From Anaerolineae bacterium (GTDB taxonomy: Bacteria > Chloroflexota > Anaerolineae > Epilineales > Epilineaceae): DNA of 46,498 nucleotides. Made by a program: the position numbers and the translations under genes. Where the stretch lies: NCBI GenBank assembly GCA_029262755.1, contig JAJCYU010000105.1, positions 1-46,498 on the forward strand, written 5' to 3'. Positions within the stretch are counted from its first letter, which is position 1; the number at the start of each line of letters is the position of its first letter. Below are positions 12,779 to 37,635 of the stretch, in pieces. The notes beneath the pieces were generated by a model. That model had not been told where the DNA came from. It saw nothing but the letters and a program-made list of their open reading frames with translations, and ran no database searches.

Positions 12779-12805
12779 GGGAACATCGGCCCACCACGCG
12801 CGTAG
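12779..12805 (+). promoter_or_regulatory. ECF-type promoter, copy 1 (GGGAACATC-N14-GTAG)
   Basis: GGAAC-N17-GTAG upstream of lipoprotein 12880. The same motif occurs at 25454, 27630 and 28566. Confidence 0.7.
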
Positions 12806-12879: not shown

Positions 12880-13305
12880 ATGAATCCGCTTCGGATTATC
12901 TTCCTTGCCACGATCTTGCTTGCCTCCCTCGGCCTGACGGCCTGCTCCGGAAGCACCGATGTGGCGGGCTCAGCCTCGGACGCCGAGCAGGCGAGCAAAG
13001 GGGGCGCAGACGGAGAGCTCGTATGGCCGGTGGACAGCGCGAGGGCGATTCTCGACGCGATCGAGAACTTCGAGGACGACTCGATCAACATGGCGATGCT
13101 TGACGAAATCGCTTCGAAGCAGGACCTCAAGGCCGAGGTGGAGGAGCTGGACGGCTTCTTGCAGCGCATCGCGAGCGGAGATCTAGGATCCGGTCGAACG
13201 GGCAGCGAGGCCTTGGTCACCGTCGCGACGGGTATAACGCAGGGCAGGACCGTGCCCACCCCAGACCTGCGGGACGCGCTGCGGGAGATCATCGAGACCA
13301 AGTAG
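12880..13305 (+). CDS. Lipoprotein, short paralog of 25562 and 28804
   Basis: MNPLRIIFLATILLASLGLTAC-SGSTDVAGSA resembles MRTLKLFTMTMLLLASLGLAAC-TNTDVSGTA. One helical domain. Confidence 0.8.
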   Translation: MNPLRIIFLATILLASLGLTACSGSTDVAGSASDAEQASKGGADGELVWPVDSARAILDAIENFEDDSINMAMLDEIASKQDLKAEVEELDGFLQRIASGDLGSGRTGSEALVTVATGITQGRTVPTPDLRDALREIIETK

Positions 13306-25561: not shown

Positions 25562-26527
25562 ATGCGCACGTTGAAGCTGTTCACCATGACCATGTTGTTG
25601 CTGGCTTCGTTGGGCCTCGCGGCCTGCACGAACACCGACGTCTCAGGTACGGCCGGCGACACGCCGCCTGAGGTTCCCGGCAAAGAGGTTCCGCCGGACC
25701 CCCAGAATCCGCCCGAGAAGCCCGGCGGCAACGTCGATCCCGGTTCCGGTAACACCGATCCCGGCCAAGAGAAGGGTGGCGCGAACGATCCCGGTAGCGG
25801 TGGCAACGCCGATGCCAGCAAGGAGATCACCCTCGAGAGCTTCCTTGCCCAGCTGAACCCGTCCCAGCGTCTGGACTTCGCCTACATCGAAGAGCACTGC
25901 GGAGCTCCGTGCCTCGAGGCGAGCGAAGCCTTGAACGCCTTCATCCAAGAGCTGTGCGCCACGAGCCCGGACGACTGCACCGCCGAGCTGCAGGCCATGC
26001 TCACCAAGCAGCGCACGACGACGCAGGTCCGCAACGATCAGGGTCTGGTCGGGCTGCCCAACGCGGACACCGTTTCCAAGCTCCTCCAGCAGTCGCAGGG
26101 CGGCGCCCCGGCGGGCGGCGGTGACACCAGTGGCGGCGACGCCGGCACAGGTGGCGGCGACACGGGCGGCCAGGCCGGTGGCGGCGACACCGGTGGCGAC
26201 ACCGGTGGCCAGGCCGGCGGCGGCGACAACAAGGGTGGCGACGAGGGCAAGGCGCTCCCGGCCGCGCCGGTAGCAGCAGCGGCGGCCGTGCAGGCGGTCA
26301 TCGAGAGCATCGGTCTTGACACGCTTAGCTGGAACGAGATCGCGGGTGCGGCCGACAAGGCGGACGTCGCAGCCCTGGCCACGTACTTCCAGCAGATCAC
26401 GGAGGGCGGCCTCGCGCTACCCGGCTGCGACGACTGCGTGGACACGATGAACGACCTGATGGGCGGCAACAACGTGGACGTGGATGACATCCGCAACCTG
26501 TTGATCGCCATCCAGACCATCGGCTGA
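25562..26527 (+). CDS. Two-domain Cys-containing lipoprotein, paralog A
   Basis: GGGAGG RBS, lipobox LAAC, Pro/Gly linker, 4-Cys domain, GGDT linker and CxxC domain. Confidence 0.9.
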   Translation: MRTLKLFTMTMLLLASLGLAACTNTDVSGTAGDTPPEVPGKEVPPDPQNPPEKPGGNVDPGSGNTDPGQEKGGANDPGSGGNADASKEITLESFLAQLNPSQRLDFAYIEEHCGAPCLEASEALNAFIQELCATSPDDCTAELQAMLTKQRTTTQVRNDQGLVGLPNADTVSKLLQQSQGGAPAGGGDTSGGDAGTGGGDTGGQAGGGDTGGDTGGQAGGGDNKGGDEGKALPAAPVAAAAAVQAVIESIGLDTLSWNEIAGAADKADVAALATYFQQITEGGLALPGCDDCVDTMNDLMGGNNVDVDDIRNLLIAIQTIG

Positions 26528-26598
26528 GGCAGTTCGAACACGAATCAATCGTGATCGCGGAGCAGCAGCCCACGATCGCAAGCGAACGATCAACGTGC

Positions 26599-26630
26599 GA
26601 GGAGGGCGTCCCCCCGGGGACGCCTTTCTC
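26599..26630. terminator. Hairpin downstream of paralog A
   Basis: GAGGAGGGCGTCCCC/GGGGACGCCTTTCTC imperfect inverted repeat. Confidence 0.55.
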
Positions 26631-26686
26631 GCGTCTCATCGCAGCCGGCGGCTCCAGTCTGCTCCACCGCCAGCGTCTACCGCCCA

Positions 26687-26851
26687 CCGCGCCAGTCGGG
26701 TTCGCGTTCTCCTCGCCGGGTCTATCCCTCGCCGCGCCAGTCGGGTTCGCGTTCGCCTCGCCGGGTCTATCCCTCGCCGCGCCAGTCGGGTTCGCGTTCG
26801 CCTCGACCGGTCTATCCCTCGCCGCGCCAGTCGGGTTCGCGTTCGCCTCGC
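26687..26851. repeat. 45-bp tandem repeat, about 3.6 copies
   Basis: Unit CGCGCCAGTCGGGTTCGCGTTCGCCTCGCCGGGTCTATCCCTCGC starting at 26688, 26733, 26778 and 26823. Confidence 0.95.
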
Positions 26852-27588
26852 ATGAACAGGGCGAGGTAGTCCGCCGAAGGGTGTCGGGTTGCGGCGATGG
26901 CACGCAGCACCGCGGCGTTGTCATAGGCCACGTACCGGCGCTCCAGCTCGTAGCCGCTTTCGTCGGCATGCAACAGGACGTACTTGGCCCGCAGGTCATC
27001 GCCGACAGGGTTGCTCACGCTGCCGAGGTTGACCGCCCGCACGCCGCCTACCGTCCGGTCCACCGGCCAATGGGTGTGCCCGGTGAAGACCAGGTCGGCA
27101 TCGGCGTCGGCCAGGAGGGCTCCAAGCTCTTCGTCGGACTGAGCCGGGTGGATCCCGGGTCCGTCGTCGGTGCCGGGTGCGGCGTGCACGCCAAGGACGC
27201 GCGTGCCGTCGGGCAGGGTTTCGCGCAGCTCGAGGGACAGGGACGCGAGGTGATCCAGGTGCGCGGTGCGCAGCGCACCGCGAGTCCAGCCGAAGCTCGC
27301 GCTGAGGCCGAGCAGATTGGCCAGACGATCGGGCCGGCTGCGCAGTACCGTGGCGGCGGTCTCGAGGTCCACGCCGTCCAGCGTCAGCCGGTCCGTGTTG
27401 CCGCGCGTGAAGCGCGCATTGGGCAGCGCGAGCAGGCGCTCCATGGCGCCGAGAGGGTCGTAGCCGAGCGCCGCAAGGTCACCGAGCACCCAATGGGCAT
27501 CGGCGCCCCCGGCCGCGGTGAGGTCGGCCAGGACGGCATCGAGGGCGATGGGATTGCCGTGCACGTCGGAGAGGATTGCGACTCGCAT
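26812..27588 (-). CDS. Metallophosphoesterase (calcineurin-like, YfcE/MJ0936 type)
   Basis: SDVHGN, LGDL, RGNTD, VHAAP, GHTH, NLGSV. Confidence 0.95.
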   Translation of the reverse strand: [258 protein letters not shown]

Positions 27589-27629
27589 GACGCGATGGTG
27601 CCCGAACTTGGCCGAATGCGCACATCGGT

Positions 27630-27656
27630 GGGAACATCTCCTAGAGGCGGGCGTAC
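27630..27656 (+). promoter_or_regulatory. ECF-type promoter, copy 3
   Basis: GGGAACATC-N14-GTAC upstream of 27772. Confidence 0.65.
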
Positions 27657-27771
27657 AAGGACCGTACCCATCATCAAACAGCCGTGGCCGCACGCGATCA
27701 CGGAGAGCCTTTCCAGCCCCCCAACGTGGCGGATCTTCGCGATCCCCGCGCCCCAAGATGGAGCCATCGGC

Positions 27772-28539
27772 ATGTCCGAGTCAGGCACACGCGGCGCGTT
27801 CGACCGCTGGCTCCCTGAGCCTTCGGAGGACGGAGGACAGCGCCCATCCGCGCCCGAACGCCTTGCGTCACGTGTCCTGGGCATGCTGCCTGTGGGCACA
27901 CCCGGCTTCTATCACGCCTTGGCCGAGATCGTCATCGACGCCTGGGCGGATCACGACCTGCGCGAGCATCTGCGCCGAGACCCGGCAGCAGCCATCGCAA
28001 AACGCGGGCTCGAGATTCCAGCCAATATCACCTTCGACATCGTCTCACCCTACGAAGCGACGTTGCCGGAAGGCACGCGCGTTGGACTGCCCCTTCCGCC
28101 CGCGAACGATCCCGTCACGACCACCGCGCTAGCACGGGCGGGCCTGGCGGACACGGCATGGGGCTGGTTGTTGAACGCCCCCGTCGAGTCCATGGACGCC
28201 GACGAAGATCCACTCGCAGCCGGATCCGCGTTCGCCGTTGCGGCGGCGCGTGTCCAAGAGAGAGAGCAGGCGCGTGCGCATCAGGATCACGCCGCGCGAT
28301 CTACAAACAAGCACACACCGTGGTTCGACCGTTTCCGTCGCACACCGCGACCGGTCTTCACGCTCGTCGGCGCCTTCGGCGCCGTGGTGCTGCTGATCTG
28401 GTCCGCGAACTCAGGAGGCATTCTCTCTGGAGATTCGACCTCCGGCACCGCCTCGGGCACCCTGTCCTGGACCTGGACCGCCATCTACCTCGCTGCGTTC
28501 GGCGCAGCCTGGTGGTGGATGGCCGGCCGGAAAGGATGA
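27772..28539 (+). CDS. Membrane-anchored protein with NHLP/nitrile-hydratase-alpha-leader-like domain
   Basis: GGAG RBS. LAEIVIDAWADHDLREHLRRDPAAAIAKRGLEIPANITFDIV...LPLPP, then two C-terminal TM helices. Confidence 0.7.
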   Translation: MSESGTRGAFDRWLPEPSEDGGQRPSAPERLASRVLGMLPVGTPGFYHALAEIVIDAWADHDLREHLRRDPAAAIAKRGLEIPANITFDIVSPYEATLPEGTRVGLPLPPANDPVTTTALARAGLADTAWGWLLNAPVESMDADEDPLAAGSAFAVAAARVQEREQARAHQDHAARSTNKHTPWFDRFRRTPRPVFTLVGAFGAVVLLIWSANSGGILSGDSTSGTASGTLSWTWTAIYLAAFGAAWWWMAGRKG

Positions 28540-28565
28540 CCACCAACCCTTAGGTAGCAATTCGT

Positions 28566-28592
28566 GGGAACATCACAGCAACCCACGAGTAG
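28566..28592 (+). promoter_or_regulatory. ECF-type promoter, copy 4
   Basis: GGGAACATC-N14-GTAG, followed by AAGGACTGTCGC, which resembles AAAGGCTGTCGC after copy 2. Confidence 0.7.
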
Positions 28593-28803
28593 AAGGACTG
28601 TCGCTAGCGCACGAGAGGCCCAGCAGCAGGGAGGAGATGGGTCGCAACCGGCCTACCGGGGCCACCGGAAGTAGCGGAGGCGAAGTATCACCCGGCATTT
28701 GGCGGCAGCGCACATTTTTCGGAGGAGGAACACCATGAGCAGCTCGAATCGATCAGCCCGATTGACTCGTGAACACGTCCCACAACGGGAGGGAGGCACC
28801 ACC

Positions 28804-29790
28804 ATGCGCGCTCTGAAGCTCTTCACCATGACCATGCTGCTGCTGGCTTCGTTGGGTCTCGCGGCCTGCACCGGCACCGACGTATCAGGCACGGCCGGCG
28901 ACACGCCGCCGGATGTCCCCGGCAAGGAGGTCCCGCCGGATCCCGAGAACCCGCCTGAGAAGCCCGGCGGCAACGTTGATCCCGGCGCCGGCAACACCGA
29001 TCCCGGCAACGAGAAGGAAGGCTCCAACGACCCCGGTAGCGGCAGCAACGCCGATGCCAGCAAGGAAATCACCCTTGAGAGCTTCCTTGCCCAGCTGAAC
29101 CCGTCCCAGCGTCTGGACTTCGCCTACATCGAAGAGCACTGCGGCGCACCGTGCCTCGAGGCGAGCGAAGCCCTCAACGCGTACATTCAAGAGTTGTGCG
29201 CATCGAGCCCGGATGACTGCACCCCCGAGCTGCAGGCGATGCTCACCAAGGAGCGCACGGCGACGCAGGTCCGCAACGACCAGGGTCTGGTCGGTCTACC
29301 GAACGCGGATGCCGTCAGCAAGCTCCTCCAGCAGTCGCAGGGCGGCGCCCCAGCGGGCGGCGGTGACACGAGCGGCGGCACCGGCAGCAGTGGCGGCGAC
29401 ACCGGTGGCGACACCGGCGGCGGCGACACGGGTGGCGGCGACACCGGTGGCGACACGGGTGGCCAGGCCGGCGGCGGCGACACCGGCGGCGACAAGGGCG
29501 GCGATGGCGACAAGACGATGCCCGCGGCTCCGGTGGCAGCAGCGGCAGCAGTGCAGGCCGTGGTCGAGACCCTCGGCCAGCCGAGCCTGACGTGGGAGAT
29601 GATCGCGGCGGCGGCCGACAAGGGCGACGTTGCAGCGCTGTCCGAGTACTTCGCAGCCTTGATCGACATGAACATGAGCGTGCCGGGTTGCGACGAGTGC
29701 GCGACGACGATGACGGCACTGCTCGACGGTGTGCCGGCTTCGGCAGAGAGCATCATGACGCTCCTCACGGCCGTCCAGGCCCAGAAGTAG
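28804..29790 (+). CDS. Two-domain Cys-containing lipoprotein, paralog B
   Basis: GGAGG RBS; colinear with 25562..26527. Alternative in-frame ATG at 28735. Confidence 0.9.
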   Translation: MRALKLFTMTMLLLASLGLAACTGTDVSGTAGDTPPDVPGKEVPPDPENPPEKPGGNVDPGAGNTDPGNEKEGSNDPGSGSNADASKEITLESFLAQLNPSQRLDFAYIEEHCGAPCLEASEALNAYIQELCASSPDDCTPELQAMLTKERTATQVRNDQGLVGLPNADAVSKLLQQSQGGAPAGGGDTSGGTGSSGGDTGGDTGGGDTGGGDTGGDTGGQAGGGDTGGDKGGDGDKTMPAAPVAAAAAVQAVVETLGQPSLTWEMIAAAADKGDVAALSEYFAALIDMNMSVPGCDECATTMTALLDGVPASAESIMTLLTAVQAQK

Positions 29791-29843
29791 CATCGGGAGC
29801 AGCACGCTAGGACGGGCAAGTCCCGACCTACGTAGCAATGCAA

Positions 29844-29877
29844 CAAAAGGGGCGCCCTCACGGGCGCCCCTTTTTTG
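29844..29877. terminator. Bidirectional intrinsic terminator
   Basis: AAAAGGGGCGCCC-tcac-GGGCGCCCCTTTTTT. Confidence 0.9.
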
Positions 29878-29907
29878 TGCGTTGCAGCGATTCACGTTCT
29901 GCCGCAA

Positions 29908-29990
29908 TCCGCTCGTCGCCGTCACGTCCGGTTCCCGTCACGTCCGCTCGCCGTCACGTCCGCTCGCCGTCACATCCGGTAGCCGTCACG
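29908..29990. repeat. Degenerate ~16-bp tandem repeat, about 5 copies
   Basis: Consensus TCCGCTCGCCGTCACG; CCGTCAC recurs five times. Confidence 0.8.
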
Positions 29991-30052
29991 CTAGTAGCCC
30001 GCACGCCGGATATCTGCTCCTCCTGCCGCCTACAGCCCAGACGCCGGAGCCG

Positions 30053-30898
30053 CTACTCGCCCGCGCCCAAGCGCAACGTCGCCACGACCGGCAGATGATC
30101 GGAAGCGCGCCGGGCGAGAGGGGAATCGTGCACGGCGATATCGGCGATCCGGTGCGCCGGGTGGGCCAGGATACGATCGAGACGTATGAGGGGAATCCGT
30201 GCAGGGAAGCTGCGCGGCGCCGGTTGCGCGCCCAGGGCGCGCTCCAGCCGGCGAACCGCTCGGCCGCGGCCGGTCGGGTCGTTCAGGTCGCCGAGCACGA
30301 CGATCGCATCGACATCGTCTCGTTCCGAGTTGTCCAGCTCCAGCGCGTCCAAGAGACGGTCGGCTTGCTCGATGCGCTCGGAGCCGCTCAGGCCGAGGTG
30401 GGTCGCGAAGACGCGGATCGTGCGGCCGCCCAGGGTAACCCGCGCTTCGAGCGCGCCGCGTGGCTCTGGCTTTCCGATGCGTCCGTGGCAGCCGTCGCGC
30501 AGGGGGTGGTTGATCACGCGGCTCGGTGCTTCGCGCAGCAAGAGCGCGTTGCCGTAGTCGCCCCGGTGATCGCGCATCGCCCCGCCGGGGACGGCCCGAT
30601 AACCCGCGGCCTCTGCGATCCGGAAGAGCTGCCCGTCCATCCGCCCCGGCTGCGTCGAGACTTCTTGCAGTCCAACGACGTCCGCGTCGATCTCGCGCAG
30701 CACGGCCGCGATCCGATCCGGGCGCGCCGCACGCGGCCACCCGGCGCCGACCGCGCCGTGGATGTTGTACGTGGCCACGCGTATCGAGCGCAGCGGATCG
30801 CGCGGGCTCGGCGTATCGCGCGGCGACGAGGGAGCCCCTTGCTTCGGAGCCCCTTGCCTCGTCCCGTCCTGCGGCCCCACCGGTTCCCCTTCCTTCAC
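30053..30898 (-). CDS. Endonuclease/exonuclease/phosphatase (EEP, YbhP-like)
   Basis: ATYNIH, VGLQEV, YGNALL, THL, LGDLN, LDRI, SDHLPV. Start placed at the GTG overlapping the PLD stop (GTGA). Confidence 0.9.
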   Translation of the reverse strand: MKEGEPVGPQDGTRQGAPKQGAPSSPRDTPSPRDPLRSIRVATYNIHGAVGAGWPRAARPDRIAAVLREIDADVVGLQEVSTQPGRMDGQLFRIAEAAGYRAVPGGAMRDHRGDYGNALLLREAPSRVINHPLRDGCHGRIGKPEPRGALEARVTLGGRTIRVFATHLGLSGSERIEQADRLLDALELDNSERDDVDAIVVLGDLNDPTGRGRAVRRLERALGAQPAPRSFPARIPLIRLDRILAHPAHRIADIAVHDSPLARRASDHLPVVATLRLGAGE

Positions 30899-33381: not shown

Positions 33382-33410
33382 TTGACAGAGGTACCCCGCC
33401 AAGGCACGAT
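33382..33410 (+). promoter_or_regulatory. Putative sigma70 promoter of the prsW-like operon
   Basis: Perfect TTGACA-N17-CACGAT. Confidence 0.5.
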
Positions 33411-34671
33411 GCCACGCGATGTCGGCCTTGCACTGGAGACCCCGCCCCTGACCCTGCTCATCCCAACCTTGGTCTCGATCGGCGTGCCGCTCGGGTTCCT
33501 GTGGTTCGTGCGGCGCATGGACCTGTACGCGTCCGGAAGCTTCCGCACCGTCCTGGTGTGCTTCGGCGCCGGGCTTGCTGCCTTTCCGGCCGCGTACGTG
33601 CTCAACACCCAGGCGCGCGGGCTCATGCTGGCCTCGGGTCTGACGGCGGTGGCCGCAAGCCTCCTGCTGCGCACGACCGTTGCGCCGATTATTGAGGAAG
33701 TGCTGAAGTCTGCGGGCGTCGTCTACTACGCCAACAAGCCGCAGTTCACGTACTTCGTCGACGGCGCCATCTACGGCTTCGCGGCCGGCACCGCCTTCGC
33801 CGTGATCGAGAACGTCAACTACCTGCAGAACGCCCCGGAAGGCCTGGCATTGGGCACCGCGATCAACCGCGCCTTTTCCACGTCGCTTATGCACGGCGGC
33901 GCGAGCGCGTTGGTCGGCGTAGCCATCGGCCGCTTCCGCTTCGAGAAAGGCTGGACACGTGCGTTTGCGCTCGTGGGCGGCTGGGGGGCGGCTATCGCGT
34001 TGCACAGCGCCTTCAACCGGCTGGTCAACAGCGGGCCGATGGACACCATGCGCCTGATCGGCGCCTTTGGGATCGGCTTCGGCGCCGTGGGCCTGACCGC
34101 GTTGTTCATCCTGTGGGGCCTGCGCGTGCAACGTCGCTGGCTCCGGCAGTCGCTCGGCTTGGACGTCGGGGTGACGTCGGGCGAGTCGGAGGTCGTGCAG
34201 AAGCTGGCCGACCTGGATGAGCTGCTACGGCCGATCACCGAGGTCTTCGGGCCGCAGAAGCGCGACGCGGTTGAGCGATTCTTGCGCATCCAGGCTCGCC
34301 TCGGTATCAAACGCAAAGCGCAGCAGCTGACACCCGACGCCAAGCTAGCCGCGGCGCTGGCGGCGGAAGTGGCGGATCTGCGCGAAGAGATGGACCAGCT
34401 GCGTCGCGAGGTCGGCGTCTACTGCATGACGTTCGTGCGCTCGATCCTGCCACCGGAAACCGAAGCACTGTGGGATCCGCTCGCCAAGCGGCTGGCCGAG
34501 GTCGAGGCACGCAGGGAGACAGAGAGCGGGGGCATGAACCTGTGGCAGACTCTCGGCGACCGCGCCGACGCGGCAGGGGACGGTGCAGCAGGGGGCGCTT
34601 TCGCTGACAGCGATGCGGCAGAGGACGATGCGACCGCGGGCGACGCAGCCGCGGGCGATCCATCCACCTAG
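33409..34671 (+). CDS. prsW: PrsW-family glutamic-type intramembrane protease with cytoplasmic helical extension (start 33409-33448)
   Basis: APIIEEVLK, FAVIEN, LMHG and ALHSAFN motifs; about 7 TM. Confidence 0.85.
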   Translation: MPRDVGLALETPPLTLLIPTLVSIGVPLGFLWFVRRMDLYASGSFRTVLVCFGAGLAAFPAAYVLNTQARGLMLASGLTAVAASLLLRTTVAPIIEEVLKSAGVVYYANKPQFTYFVDGAIYGFAAGTAFAVIENVNYLQNAPEGLALGTAINRAFSTSLMHGGASALVGVAIGRFRFEKGWTRAFALVGGWGAAIALHSAFNRLVNSGPMDTMRLIGAFGIGFGAVGLTALFILWGLRVQRRWLRQSLGLDVGVTSGESEVVQKLADLDELLRPITEVFGPQKRDAVERFLRIQARLGIKRKAQQLTPDAKLAAALAAEVADLREEMDQLRREVGVYCMTFVRSILPPETEALWDPLAKRLAEVEARRETESGGMNLWQTLGDRADAAGDGAAGGAFADSDAAEDDATAGDAAAGDPST

Positions 34672-34684
34672 GGGGAGCAGCACG

Positions 34685-35428
34685 ATGACGCAGATCGTAT
34701 CCATCCACTCGTACCGGGGCGGGACGGGCAAGTCCAACACCTGCGCCAACCTGGCCGCGTTGATCGGCCGACGCGGGCTACGGGTCGGCATCGTCGACAC
34801 CGACATCAACTCGCCCGGCATCCACGTCATCTTCGGCATGGACGATTCGTCGATCGACAAGACGCTCAACGATTATCTATGGGGCAACTGCCGTATCGAG
34901 GAAGCCGCTTACCCCATCGATCTGCCGAACACGGAAGGCTCCGTGTTCCTGATCCCCTCCAGCCCCAAGACCAGCGAGATCACCCGCGTCCTGCGCGAAG
35001 GCTACGAGGTCGGTATGCTCATCGACGGCCTGCGCGAGCTCAACGAAGCCCTCGACCTCGACGTGCTGCTGATCGACACCCACCCCGGCCTCAACGACGA
35101 GACGCTGCTCTCGATCACCATCAGCGACGTGCTGATCATCGTGCTGCGTCCGGACCAACAGGACTACCAGGGCACGGGCGTGACGGTCGAGGTCGCGCGC
35201 AAGCTCGACGTACCCGAGCTCTACCTGCTGCTCAACAAAGTGCCCGCCGCCTTCGATGCCGAAGACGTGCGCCAGACCGTGCAGGACACCTACGGCGCAC
35301 AAGTGCCGGCCGTCCTGCCCCACGCCGACGAGATGATGGTGCTCAGCAGCGCCGGCATCTTCGTCGTGGAGTTCCCGAACCACCCTCTCACACGCGAGCT
35401 CGAGGGCCTGGCGGCCCTTCTCGGCTAG
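34685..35428 (+). CDS. MinD/ParA-family ATPase (atypical)
   Basis: HSYRGGTGKS, VDTDINSPG, LIDTHPG, LNKV. GGGGGAG RBS. Confidence 0.9.
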   Translation: MTQIVSIHSYRGGTGKSNTCANLAALIGRRGLRVGIVDTDINSPGIHVIFGMDDSSIDKTLNDYLWGNCRIEEAAYPIDLPNTEGSVFLIPSSPKTSEITRVLREGYEVGMLIDGLRELNEALDLDVLLIDTHPGLNDETLLSITISDVLIIVLRPDQQDYQGTGVTVEVARKLDVPELYLLLNKVPAAFDAEDVRQTVQDTYGAQVPAVLPHADEMMVLSSAGIFVVEFPNHPLTRELEGLAALLG

Positions 35429-35579: not shown

Positions 35580-35792
35580 ATGCGGTGCCACAAATGCGGT
35601 GAGGAGCCGATCGGGGTGTGCAAGTTCTGCGGGCGCGCGGTCTGCCCGGACTGTCATCAACCGATGCCCTTCATCTTGAACCTCTACGTGGGCGAAGACG
35701 CCGTGCCGAAGGCCATCGTCGTCGCCGACACGCTGTGGTGCCGCACCTGCCGGCCGCAGCCGGAGCCGATCCCAATGCCCGAGATCTCCTGA
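35580..35792 (+). CDS. Small Cys-rich zinc-finger protein (B-box-like)
   Basis: AGGAG RBS. CxxC-x7-CxxC-x4-CxxCH...CxxC. Confidence 0.8.
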   Translation: MRCHKCGEEPIGVCKFCGRAVCPDCHQPMPFILNLYVGEDAVPKAIVVADTLWCRTCRPQPEPIPMPEIS

Positions 35793-35813: not shown

Positions 35814-36266
35814 ATGGCGGGACTATTCGACCGACTTCAGGAAGACCTGGAGCAACGCGACAAGATGGCGGGCATGAGCCCGGCGGACCTGCTCATGCTC
35901 CCCGACGACGAGCGGCGCATCGTCCAGGCCCTCGCCCGGCGCGGCGATCTGAGCCTCGACGAGCTGGTCGCGCACCTCGACAGCGACGTGGACGCCGTGC
36001 GGGCGACGCTGGCCGTTTTGCGCGAAAAGGGCTTCGCGCGCGAGCTGGATATAAAGGGCCGCACGATCTGGCGGACTTACTTTGCCCGCCGTAAGCCAAG
36101 CAGCGCGCTGAACAGCATCTGGGCCAACCTGGCTGAGAAGACGGATGTGAGCGCGGAGGCGGATGCGAGCGGGGATGCGAGCGTCTCCGACGGCGCGGAC
36201 GCGCACCGCGACGAGGGCGGCTCTCGCCCAACGAACGACCCGACCACGGGGGGCAACGATGGCTGA
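35814..36266 (+). CDS. Winged-helix domain protein
   Basis: Strong GGAGGAGG RBS. ERRIVQALARRGDLSLDELVAHL..VRATLAVLREKGF. Confidence 0.8.
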   Translation: MAGLFDRLQEDLEQRDKMAGMSPADLLMLPDDERRIVQALARRGDLSLDELVAHLDSDVDAVRATLAVLREKGFARELDIKGRTIWRTYFARRKPSSALNSIWANLAEKTDVSAEADASGDASVSDGADAHRDEGGSRPTNDPTTGGNDG

Positions 36267-36978
36267 GGCCAAAAACGATGCGGCATTGATCCGCGGCCTG
36301 CTCGATGCGCCCGCCTTGCAAGGGAAGTGGACGGAGGTCGCGGTGCCGCCGGGCGAGTTGCTCTTCGCCCAAGGTGATCCCGGCGACGCGTTCTATGCAG
36401 TGCTCGACGGCGAGCTCGACATCTTTGCCGGCGACGACCTGTTGCTGGAGCGCATCGGCCCCGGCGCGTCGCTCGGCGAGATCGCCCTGCTCGACGGCGG
36501 CGTGCGCGCAGCGAGCGTGCGGGCCCTCACGCCCGCTCGGCTGAAGCGTCTGGACCGCGAGGCCTTTCTCGAGACCCTACCCGACTCGCCCGAGCTGAGC
36601 GGCACGGTGATCTCGATTCTCGAAACCCGCATCCGCCGCATGACCCACTATGTCGACTACCTGACCACCTGGGCCGGTCTCGTGGCCGAAGGGGACTACG
36701 ACTCCGCGCGCGAGGCTATCGTCGCGCAGAGCTCCGACACCGCGGACGCCAACCTCGGCCGCTTCGTGAGCACCTTCACGAACATGGTCTCCGCGGTGCA
36801 GGCGCGCGAAGCCGAACTGCGCAAAGAGCTGCGCCGCCTGCGGATCCAGATCGACCGCAGGGAACAGGCGGTCCAAGTGGCCGAGATCACCGGCGACGAC
36901 TACTTCAAGGACCTGAAATCCCGCTCCCAAGGGCTGCGCTCGCGCATCAAGGACGGCGGGTCAGGCTCCAAAGGCTGA
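36259..36978 (+). CDS. Cyclic-nucleotide-binding domain protein with coiled-coil C-terminus (no Crp HTH)
   Basis: LFAQGDPGDAFYAVLDGEL, GEIALLDGGVRAASVRA. Tail MVSAVQAREAEL..LRIQIDR..QVAEITGDDYFKDL. Confidence 0.88.
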   Translation: MAEAKNDAALIRGLLDAPALQGKWTEVAVPPGELLFAQGDPGDAFYAVLDGELDIFAGDDLLLERIGPGASLGEIALLDGGVRAASVRALTPARLKRLDREAFLETLPDSPELSGTVISILETRIRRMTHYVDYLTTWAGLVAEGDYDSAREAIVAQSSDTADANLGRFVSTFTNMVSAVQAREAELRKELRRLRIQIDRREQAVQVAEITGDDYFKDLKSRSQGLRSRIKDGGSGSKG

Positions 36979-37047: not shown

Positions 37048-37635
37048 ATGCCGACGGCTGATTCCCCACAGCCAAGCGATGCGGAGCTCGTCGCCTCGAT
37101 TCTCGACGGCGAGCGCAACGCCTATGCCCTTTTGCTGGAACGCTACCAGCACAAGGTCTATCGGATTGTGCTGCGCATGTGCGGCAACCCCTACGATGCC
37201 GAGGAGCTGACCCAGGAGGTCTTCTACAAGACCTACTTCGCCCTGGCCACCTTCCGCCCCGAGTTCCGCTTCTCGAGCTGGCTGTACAAGATCGCCTCGA
37301 ACCACACGGTCAGCTTCCTGCGCACGCGCCACCGCACGGTATCCCTGGAGCGCGGCGCGGACGCCGACCCGGACGCCCCGGCGCCCGAGCCCGAAGATAC
37401 GAGCCCGCGCCAACGCCCGGAACCCTCGCTGGAACGCGAAGACCGCAGCGAAGCGCTATGGAGCGCCGTGGCCTCCCTCCCGACCGACTTCCGCGACATC
37501 GTCTTCATGCGCCACGTCGAGGAGCTCTCCTACAAGGAGATCTGCGAAGCGACGGGCCTGAGCATGGGCACGGTCAAGAGCCGCCTCGCACGAGCCCGCA
37601 GCAAGCTCGAGCACAAGCTGGCGGGGTCGCGGTAG
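37048..37635 (+). CDS. ECF RNA polymerase sigma factor (SigW/RpoE-like)
   Basis: DAEELTQEVF, FSSWLYKIASN, LSYKEIC..TGLSMGTVKSRLARAR. Confidence 0.93.
   Translation: MPTADSPQPSDAELVASILDGERNAYALLLERYQHKVYRIVLRMCGNPYDAEELTQEVFYKTYFALATFRPEFRFSSWLYKIASNHTVSFLRTRHRTVSLERGADADPDAPAPEPEDTSPRQRPEPSLEREDRSEALWSAVASLPTDFRDIVFMRHVEELSYKEICEATGLSMGTVKSRLARARSKLEHKLAGSR

Follow-up and report, generated by a model that had tools for sequence, protein, structure and literature searches.

What does a module resembling NHLP leaders and nitrile hydratase alpha do in a protein with membrane helices? The question is raised by a 255-residue protein encoded from position 27772 (henceforth the 27772 protein) on a 46,498-nucleotide stretch of DNA from an Anaerolineae bacterium, the whole of which we call the window. 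A preliminary description had read the protein as a repurposed leader fold acting as a membrane-tethered docking, sensor or anti-sigma-like module. Our analysis found no evidence for a sensor and favors the anti-sigma reading: the 27772 protein is probably the membrane-anchored anti-sigma factor of the ECF sigma factor encoded at 37048, with a motif in its outer loop likely cut by PrsW, a protease that was absent from the earlier finding and that we regard as the likely regulator. This reading builds on the architecture of the protein, its family, its likeness in fold, its conserved neighbours and the coincidence of a motif with a promoter. The features are collected in the table.

The reading frame starts with an ATG preceded at 8 nt by a GGAG; between this ATG and a promoter-like site further upstream lies no other in-frame start. 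A single contig of sequencing run X1 spans positions 26822-29106 without a gap, but is not independent, because X1 is possibly the source sample. In run X2, the sequence of a related strain is available for 27600-28130 and 28159-28502; it differs by substitutions and without gaps, and the frame is intact. The promoter-like site confirms that the gene has its own ECF motif (GGGAAC-N17-GTA); it is a middling site, equalled or bettered by 139 sites in the genome and expected by chance about 0.003 times per 200-nt window, and of 13 NHLP-bearing genes eight have such a GGGAAC-type site immediately upstream. Neither a sigma-70 promoter nor a terminator was found in 26400-30200. The GC3 of the gene is 0.75, against 0.84-0.88 in its neighbours. 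Downstream, the gene directly precedes lipoprotein B, as first described; upstream and divergent lies a metallophosphoesterase gene (26812-27588, minus strand) whose product could act on cyclic nucleotides and which, as a query, had no match across 22 related loci. A 45-bp tandem repeat (26687-26851; 3.7 copies, 96% match) sits between lipoprotein A and the metallophosphoesterase gene, and a 16-bp repeat occupies 29916-29990. The two transmembrane helices fared unequally on inspection: helix 1 is clear (KD 2.05), while helix 2 (KD 0.88) is the weakest of the family and is assigned because homologs have two such segments, with KD of at least 1.5 in 40 of 42 family members.

Table. Features of the anti-sigma locus in the window
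Feature	Position	Strand	Basis
Promoter-like site, lipoprotein C	12779..12804	+	promoter model
Lipoprotein C, D-V-A-G-S-A behind lipobox Cys	12880..13305	+	motif scan
Promoter-like site, lipoprotein A; best in genome	25454..25479	+	promoter model
Lipoprotein A, paralog of B, same motif	25562..26527	+	motif scan
ECF-type promoter-like site before putative anti-sigma gene	27630..27655	+	promoter scan
Gene for putative 255-aa anti-sigma factor (NHLP-like insert, two membrane helices)	27772..28539	+	ORF translation, family alignment
Helix 1 of shortened anti-sigma domain, residues 3-17; predicted contact, sigma region 4	27778..27822	+	model, complex prediction
Helix 4 of anti-sigma domain, residues 29-40, V-[M/L]-x-x-L-P; predicted contact, sigma region 2	27856..27891	+	model, complex, alignment
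NHLP/nitrile-hydratase-alpha-like module plus two extra helices, residues 44-134; soluble relatives stop right behind	27901..28173	+	profiles, model, structure search
Membrane helix 1, residues 195-213, basic stretch before it	28354..28410	+	hydropathy, model, family alignment
Loop motif T-S-G-T-A-S-G, residues 223-229, candidate PrsW site	28438..28458	+	family alignment
Membrane helix 2, residues 232-253, plus basic tail; weakly hydrophobic here, clear in homologs	28465..28530	+	model, family alignment
Promoter-like site, lipoprotein B	28566..28591	+	promoter scan
Lipoprotein B, D-V-S-G-T-A-G four residues past lipobox Cys	28804..29790	+	motif scan
PrsW-family membrane protease, invariant catalytic-type motifs, C-terminal extension	33409..34671	+	profile, alignment
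MinD/ParA-like ATPase	34685..35428	+	domain search
70-aa Cys-rich protein, no known family, locus marker	35580..35792	+	homolog search
Winged-helix protein	35814..36266	+	domain search
Cyclic-nucleotide-binding (cNMP) protein	36259..36978	+	domain search
ECF sigma factor, predicted partner	37048..37635	+	profile, complex prediction

A word-indexed homolog search with the full 255-residue protein found nothing, but a full HMMER search returned 50 proteins, of which 41 long-form sequences together with the query make up our 42-row alignment (A1); nine shorter NHLP-repeat proteins were left out. This family bears out the proposed likeness to NHLP leaders and nitrile hydratase alpha. The profile TIGR03793 aligns 42 of its 77 positions with residues 51-92 of the 27772 protein at 27.4 bits (E 2.2e-6), below its cut-off of 50.9, and recognizes 36 of the 42 members at E 0.01. 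PF02979, the second profile named in the preliminary description, did less well: a Pfam search with the 27772 protein alone gave no family at E 0.01, PF02979 included, and PF02979 matched 20 of the 42 members at E 0.05. The family profile in turn matches nitrile hydratase alpha at 1e-10 and the NHLP structure 8TB1 at 2e-7. Modelled alone, residues 40-138 (pLDDT 90.7) form three helices, two strands and two further helices, and the full-length model is confident over residues 31-135. In a structure search of 48,161 chains the top five matches (8TB1, 6LK7, 4OB1, 9CJX and 2DPP) are all NHLP or nitrile hydratase alpha, with low Z scores of 3.7-4.8 and an rmsd of 3.2-4.6 across 60-82 residues. Foldseek found no match at E 0.001 with either the full model or that of residues 40-138, and the matches of a whole-protein structural search were filled by coiled coils. 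We assign the NHLP fold because the structure matches, low in Z on their own, agree with the sequence profile, and the modelled residues 40-138 appear to adopt the NHLP tertiary fold.

NHLP leaders are defined by loss of the CxxCSC motif together with a Gly-Gly site and a variable core (PMC2887384). The metal motif is indeed found in none of the 42 family members, as the query had suggested. A Gly-Gly occurs within 30 residues behind the L-P-L-P stretch in only four of the 42; the 27772 protein has none, nor a short variable Cys/Ser/Thr core after one, and its 255 residues include no Cys, in line with the first reading of the sequence. Likewise, no RiPP-modifying enzyme or NHLP transporter was found among the 51 window ORFs scanned or in the related loci. 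The genome, which is 84% complete, yielded no YcaO in a search whose control worked, and the 27772 protein is its sole NHLP-like match. We therefore rejected an NHLP RiPP precursor on its score under the cut-off, the missing Gly-Gly core and enzymes and the single copy, and a nitrile hydratase alpha enzyme on the missing CxxCSC motif and the presence of one scaffold repeat only. The same fate befalls, for the most part, the idea of a membrane-tethered RiPP precursor or leader decoy with PrsW acting as a CaaX-type bacteriocin protease: it would account for the profile and fold likeness and for the published relation of PrsW to CaaX-type proteases (PMC8767453), but is largely refuted, and given next to no weight, given that Gly-Gly site and variable core are lacking, that neither another NHLP gene nor YcaO turned up in the 84%-complete genome and that the sigma context is conserved.

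Which function, then, does the family suggest? Judged from its alignment, the 27772 protein belongs to a small Chloroflexota (Anaerolineae) family whose build comprises a putative anti-sigma domain, an NHLP-like module and two membrane helices. Nine of 16 genomes of the same taxonomic family contain an ortholog, always in single copy, and a search of 18 further genomes of the order gave none; at the level of the class, 18 of 401 genomes match, seven of them over most of the length, one outside the taxonomic family. The 27772 protein is the only family member found in its genome. Related loci come from Anaerolineae and other Chloroflexota, including one from Candidatus Epilinea brevis within the same taxonomic family. 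The first 70 positions of the family match the anti-sigma factor RsiW (5WUQ) with an E of 0.038 for the profile and 0.0023 for member P0048, and the longer members have a zinc-finger anti-sigma domain resembling RsiW. Zinc ligands (HxxxCxxC) are present in 4 of 42 members and absent in the 27772 protein. Atlas gave no usable match for the 27772 protein and, for P0048, only zf-HC2 leads below 0.9; by contrast, the soluble relatives in loci L127 and L155 score 31.5 bits against zf-HC2, above its cut-off, and join this zinc finger to the same NHLP module. These soluble proteins (L127:11155-11655 and L155:4233-4736) end in a hydrophobic tail, and each gene stands behind its own GGGAAC-type site. 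The 27772 protein itself has no anti-sigma profile match: its helix 4 ends at residue 40 (most members have about 58-84 residues to this point), a short form seen in about 5 of 42, and it keeps only helices 1 and 4 of the four in this domain, which is more complete in the longer members with their zf-HC2 and RsiW matches.

The order sigma-PrsW-anti-sigma recurs with three builds of the last protein: zinc finger, NHLP module and two helices (L108); zinc finger and NHLP module without helices (L127 and L155); and zinc finger and two helices without NHLP module (L121 and L123). An NHLP-less version also occupies the same slot in a genome of the same taxonomic family (L042). A quick tree of 39 PrsW rows puts the NHLP-bearing loci at two places, interspersed with NHLP-less ones; its well-supported branches force at least three changes of the NHLP-less label, the order of gain and loss not being given by the tree. 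Because close relatives do without it, we regard the NHLP module as an optional insert. Other settings of the module were seen as well. Two genomes (G349 and G403) encode a protein (L040:7360-7992, minus strand; L041:5427-6059, plus strand) with an NHLP-like module, one helix, the near-motif I-A-G-S-V and a ubiquitin-like domain (PF00240, 33 bits) and no anti-sigma domain, lying between a membrane GAF-response regulator and a 2451-residue secreted protein; no PrsW ortholog was found in either genome. Free NHLP-type small proteins with Cys-containing tails (L056:2812-3117 and L098:3382-3627) lie in two genomes near the Cys-protein or PrsW locus and are a possible source of the insert. A second sigma clade (L043-L047, L066, L071, L073, L076, L135 and L140) has NHLP-less two-helix anti-sigma factors and the same PrsW/MinD/Cys/winged-helix/cNMP set, with class III cyclases nearby and, in some loci, PrsW-cNMP fusions.

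The complex of residues 1-138 with sigma 37048 was predicted with a score of 0.77, the best control reaching 0.00, so that the partner suggested at the outset passed; the mark applied is reached by 116 of 157 solved pairs and by 2 of 215 mismatched pairs. The runs, which used small custom alignments, have at least 85% of contacts in common and a partner pLDDT of at least 82. This pass may reflect likeness rather than binding, because a similar complex, SigW-RsiW, has already been solved. The NHLP module is predicted to contribute residues 42-48, 98-99 and 132-138, which meet sigma residues 63-69 and 18-19 (region 2), contacts for which we know of no solved template. No sigma position covaries cleanly with the module, because the Y-F-A-L stretch is kept also in three NHLP-less loci. 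The remaining predicted contacts, of residues 10-17 with sigma region 4 and of residues 24-40 with region 2, agree with the rule for class I anti-sigma factors that helix 1 lies on sigma4 and helix 4 on sigma2 (PMC7406223). Sigma binding is predicted to run mainly through two short helices before the NHLP part, which would be remnants of a class I anti-sigma domain. The earlier idea of a leader fold as the acting module holds for the fold, but the module is optional and the grip is predicted mainly from these helices. Taken together, the sigma context and the modelled complex make an anti-sigma role for the 27772 protein very probable; that contact with sigma is the main job of its NHLP module is, on the same model, slightly favored.

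A decayed anti-sigma factor that no longer holds sigma, with the NHLP module as a passive spacer, might be suspected from the short N-terminus, the missing zinc ligands, the weak second helix, the low GC3 and the distance from the sigma gene. We consider this very improbable: five of 42 members share the short form, in which both contact helices are kept, the protein is the only family member in its genome, the frame is intact in the related strain, and the complex prediction passes.

The neighbourhood supports the anti-sigma factor reading. In the window, the cluster running from PrsW to sigma lies 5-9 kb beyond the gene, 8.5 kb separating the latter from sigma 37048 with unrelated genes between; in relatives these genes are contiguous. 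Linkage to an ECF sigma gene is conserved: of 13 NHLP-bearing loci fetched with their neighbourhood, 10 contain sigma within the stretch (adjacent in three, one gene off in four, further away in three); two of the others are cut off by contig edges and one stands separate. PrsW orthologs occur in eight of the nine carriers of the anti-sigma gene within the same taxonomic family, and four of seven non-carriers lack both. As the anti-sigma alignments gave no conserved seed, loci were searched with the PrsW alignment. In the best 80 of the 215 loci found, which include eight repeats of loci fetched earlier and many short contigs, we counted MinD in 61, cNMP in 58, the Cys protein in 57, the winged-helix protein in 47, a cyclase-type match in 27, an anti-sigma tail in 26 and sigma in 24. 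The PrsW encoded at 33409 matches PF13367 with 90.2 bits, is below the B. subtilis equivalog cut-off, and has E96/E97/K100, F130/E134/N135 and H199/N203, which are invariant in 24 of 24 sequences, consistent with a PrsW with an active site at this locus. M50 (site-2 type) proteases are also present in the genome. The Cys-rich locus marker is found in 66 of 401 genomes of the class, and the circuit would therefore be widespread in an understudied phylum. Several genomes of the same taxonomic family (G013, G015, G005, G011, G012 and G003) have a second PrsW copy, which in G013 stands with an NHLP-less anti-sigma and its own sigma.

A major question for such a circuit is how the protease would know its substrate. 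To our knowledge, PrsW-type proteases have few known substrates, and no general recognition sequence has been established. The loop between the two membrane helices carries the motif [L/V/T]-S-G-[T/A/S]-A-x-G, in which G225 is kept in 41 and A227 in 38 of the 42 members. This motif, written [L/V]-S-G-[T/S/A]-A, stands just after the lipid Cys in some lipoproteins too. Of the genome's 116 candidates, as called with a custom lipobox heuristic, four have it: lipoproteins A, B and C and a small lipoprotein elsewhere (G000 contig C80, ~1310-870, minus strand) with D-L-S-G-A-A after its Cys and the second-best promoter site in the genome. The latter is unrelated in sequence, was found blind, via its promoter, and is a predicted remote member of the regulon. 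Lipoproteins A and B are 92% identical over their first 184 residues and diverge past a Gly/Thr/Asp repeat; tandem lipoprotein duplicates occur in loci L012 and L013 too. By a promoter model trained on 18 sites from relatives only, the same four lipoproteins rank first among the 116 (p 1.4e-7, or 4e-6 with paralogs A and B merged); a 19th site (L035) had been dropped as it faced the wrong way, and the ranking was unchanged. The suspected tie to the lipoproteins takes the form of a shared promoter and a shared short motif.

Across 57 loci, the motif follows a hydrophobic stretch 26 times, and 25 of these matches belong either to anti-sigma loops or to neighbouring lipoproteins and secreted proteins, close to their N-terminal anchor. 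With a looser scan the enrichment was weaker (11 of 160 for PrsW loci, 0 of 34 for loci lacking PrsW and 8 of 612 genome-wide), and the lipoproteins of the window itself escaped it. Taken alone, the promoter pattern shows no enrichment across the genome, with 7-17 sites in five genomes where the reversed control gives 19-81, and no GGGAAC-type site was found for the PrsW operon or sigma in this genome. Beside PrsW in L097, L106, L107, L124, L047, L071 and L076, unrelated exported proteins (GH5 hydrolase, CAP-domain, pentapeptide-repeat and beta-propeller) have the motif right behind an N-terminal anchor, where it looks like a tag for the same kind of processing.

Could another protease read this motif? 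An anti-sigma factor may instead have its loop cut by type I signal peptidase, as in RsiV and RsiP, PrsW having its substrate elsewhere. Signal peptidase takes small residues at positions -3 and -1 (the small-x-small rule), which G-x-A fits; its cleavage of RsiP and RsiV is published, and the near-motif I-A-G-S-V occurs in the NHLP-helix protein of the two genomes that lack this PrsW. We hold this rather improbable, as the motif lies 10-14 residues past helix 1 and also stands behind a lipid anchor without any helix, few other lipoproteins have it (4 of 116) and its occurrence goes with PrsW loci. It is likewise improbable that the motif serves as a tag for binding or modification (such as a glycosylation site, or a helix-packing G-x-x-x-G) and that a cytoplasmic signal reaches the anti-sigma factor through an NHLP module docked to the winged-helix, MinD or cNMP protein. 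Such docking would suit the soluble zinc-finger and NHLP proteins of L127 and L155, which adjoin PrsW yet have no loop to cut, as well as the cyclase genes in 27 of the best 80 of 215 PrsW loci and the residues W58, P99 and P107, invariant in the family; NHLP leaders fold into protein-binding surfaces (PMC12537861; PMC12455567), through which they engage enzymes (PMC12455567). The cytoplasmic gene set is, however, present in many loci whose anti-sigma factor has no NHLP module, and therefore does not need it.

Cleavage by PrsW is the mechanism we put forward because the PrsW motifs are invariant in all 24 sequences, because B. subtilis PrsW cuts RsiW after an Ala, between Ala168 and Ser169 (PMC8767453), and because a related protease class cuts motif-helix-basic-tail signals (PMC11980579). 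The anti-sigma factor would hold sigma 37048 at the membrane, with helix 1 on region 4, helix 4 on region 2 and the NHLP module packing beside helix 4 onto sigma residues 63-69 to widen the grip. PrsW would then cut after the motif Ala in the outer loop, and a site-2 protease (M50) and cytoplasmic proteases would free sigma, a sequence of cuts that, by analogy, we put at even chances. Freed sigma would read GGGAAC-N17/18-GTA promoters and yield more anti-sigma factor and the four lipoproteins, an induction that the promoter sites make quite probable. The lipoproteins would present this motif on the membrane surface as well, where PrsW would cut them or they would compete for it; as co-substrates or decoys they are a tentative proposal, to which we give somewhat less than even chances. 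More tentative still, the cNMP, MinD, Cys-rich and winged-helix proteins might gate PrsW from the cytoplasm. In its boldest form, which we think possible but doubtful, a cyclic-nucleotide-gated PrsW would read one surface motif, S-G-[T/S/A]-A, on the anti-sigma factor and on the induced lipoproteins, which would be shed or act as decoys ending the response, and the NHLP fold, hitherto a feature of RiPP leaders and of nitrile hydratase, would be a mobile protein-binding module that clamps sigma. If this is true, a PrsW would have a sequence code, and the NHLP fold would have a use in regulation. Because one motif is common to the likely substrate and to unrelated co-regulated lipoproteins, PrsW specificity becomes directly testable by point mutants. 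An NHLP fold in a transcription regulator would mean that it can serve as a general protein-binding module and that weak NHLP matches are not always RiPP precursors.

The locus seems to be a real, conserved variant of the sigma/anti-sigma/PrsW scheme, apparently undescribed: in a literature search that most subscription papers lay outside, no description of the NHLP/anti-sigma fusion or of the motif was found. With nitrile hydratase alpha it shares an NHLP-like scaffold (E 1e-10), but has one scaffold repeat only and no CxxCSC (0 of 42). With NHLP (proteusin) leaders (TIGR03793; 8TB1, 9CJX and 6LK7) it shares the fold of three helices and two strands and the motifs A-W-x-D-x-x-x-R-x-x-L-x-x-D-P and L-P-x-P; here, by contrast, the module is internal rather than N-terminal, scores under the cut-off, has two extra C-terminal helices, is single-copy and lacks Gly-Gly, core, modifying enzyme and transporter. 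In Chloroflexi, the ECF25 subgroups 16, 18 and 19 and ECF247 of the 2021 classification have a putative two-helix anti-sigma beside the ECF sigma, which the supplement describes by zinc domains, DUF4384/DUF4349 or bactofilins and not by PrsW, NHLP or the motif (PMC7826278). The MYXO-CTERM signals of the myxosortase MrtX, one of the CPBP proteases, resemble our proteins in having a motif, a helix, a basic tail and a related protease class (PMC11980579), and one member of the anti-sigma family has been auto-named a MYXO-CTERM protein; here, however, the motif has no Cys and also occurs at lipoprotein N-termini, and the cargo is cytoplasmic. The sorting-signal preprint makes no mention of Chloroflex-, PrsW or anti-sigma. 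Closest in logic is SigW-RsiW-PrsW of B. subtilis, with an ECF sigma, a class I zinc-finger-type membrane anti-sigma whose structure (5WUQ) the family N-terminus matches, and a PrsW that cuts after Ala (PMC8767453). RsiW has one helix and an outer domain, whereas the proteins described here have two helices joined by a loop of fewer than 20 residues and an NHLP-like insert, a PrsW that is encoded next to sigma and has a long C-terminal extension, partners of the cNMP, MinD, Cys-rich and winged-helix kinds, and a motif common to the lipoproteins of the predicted regulon.
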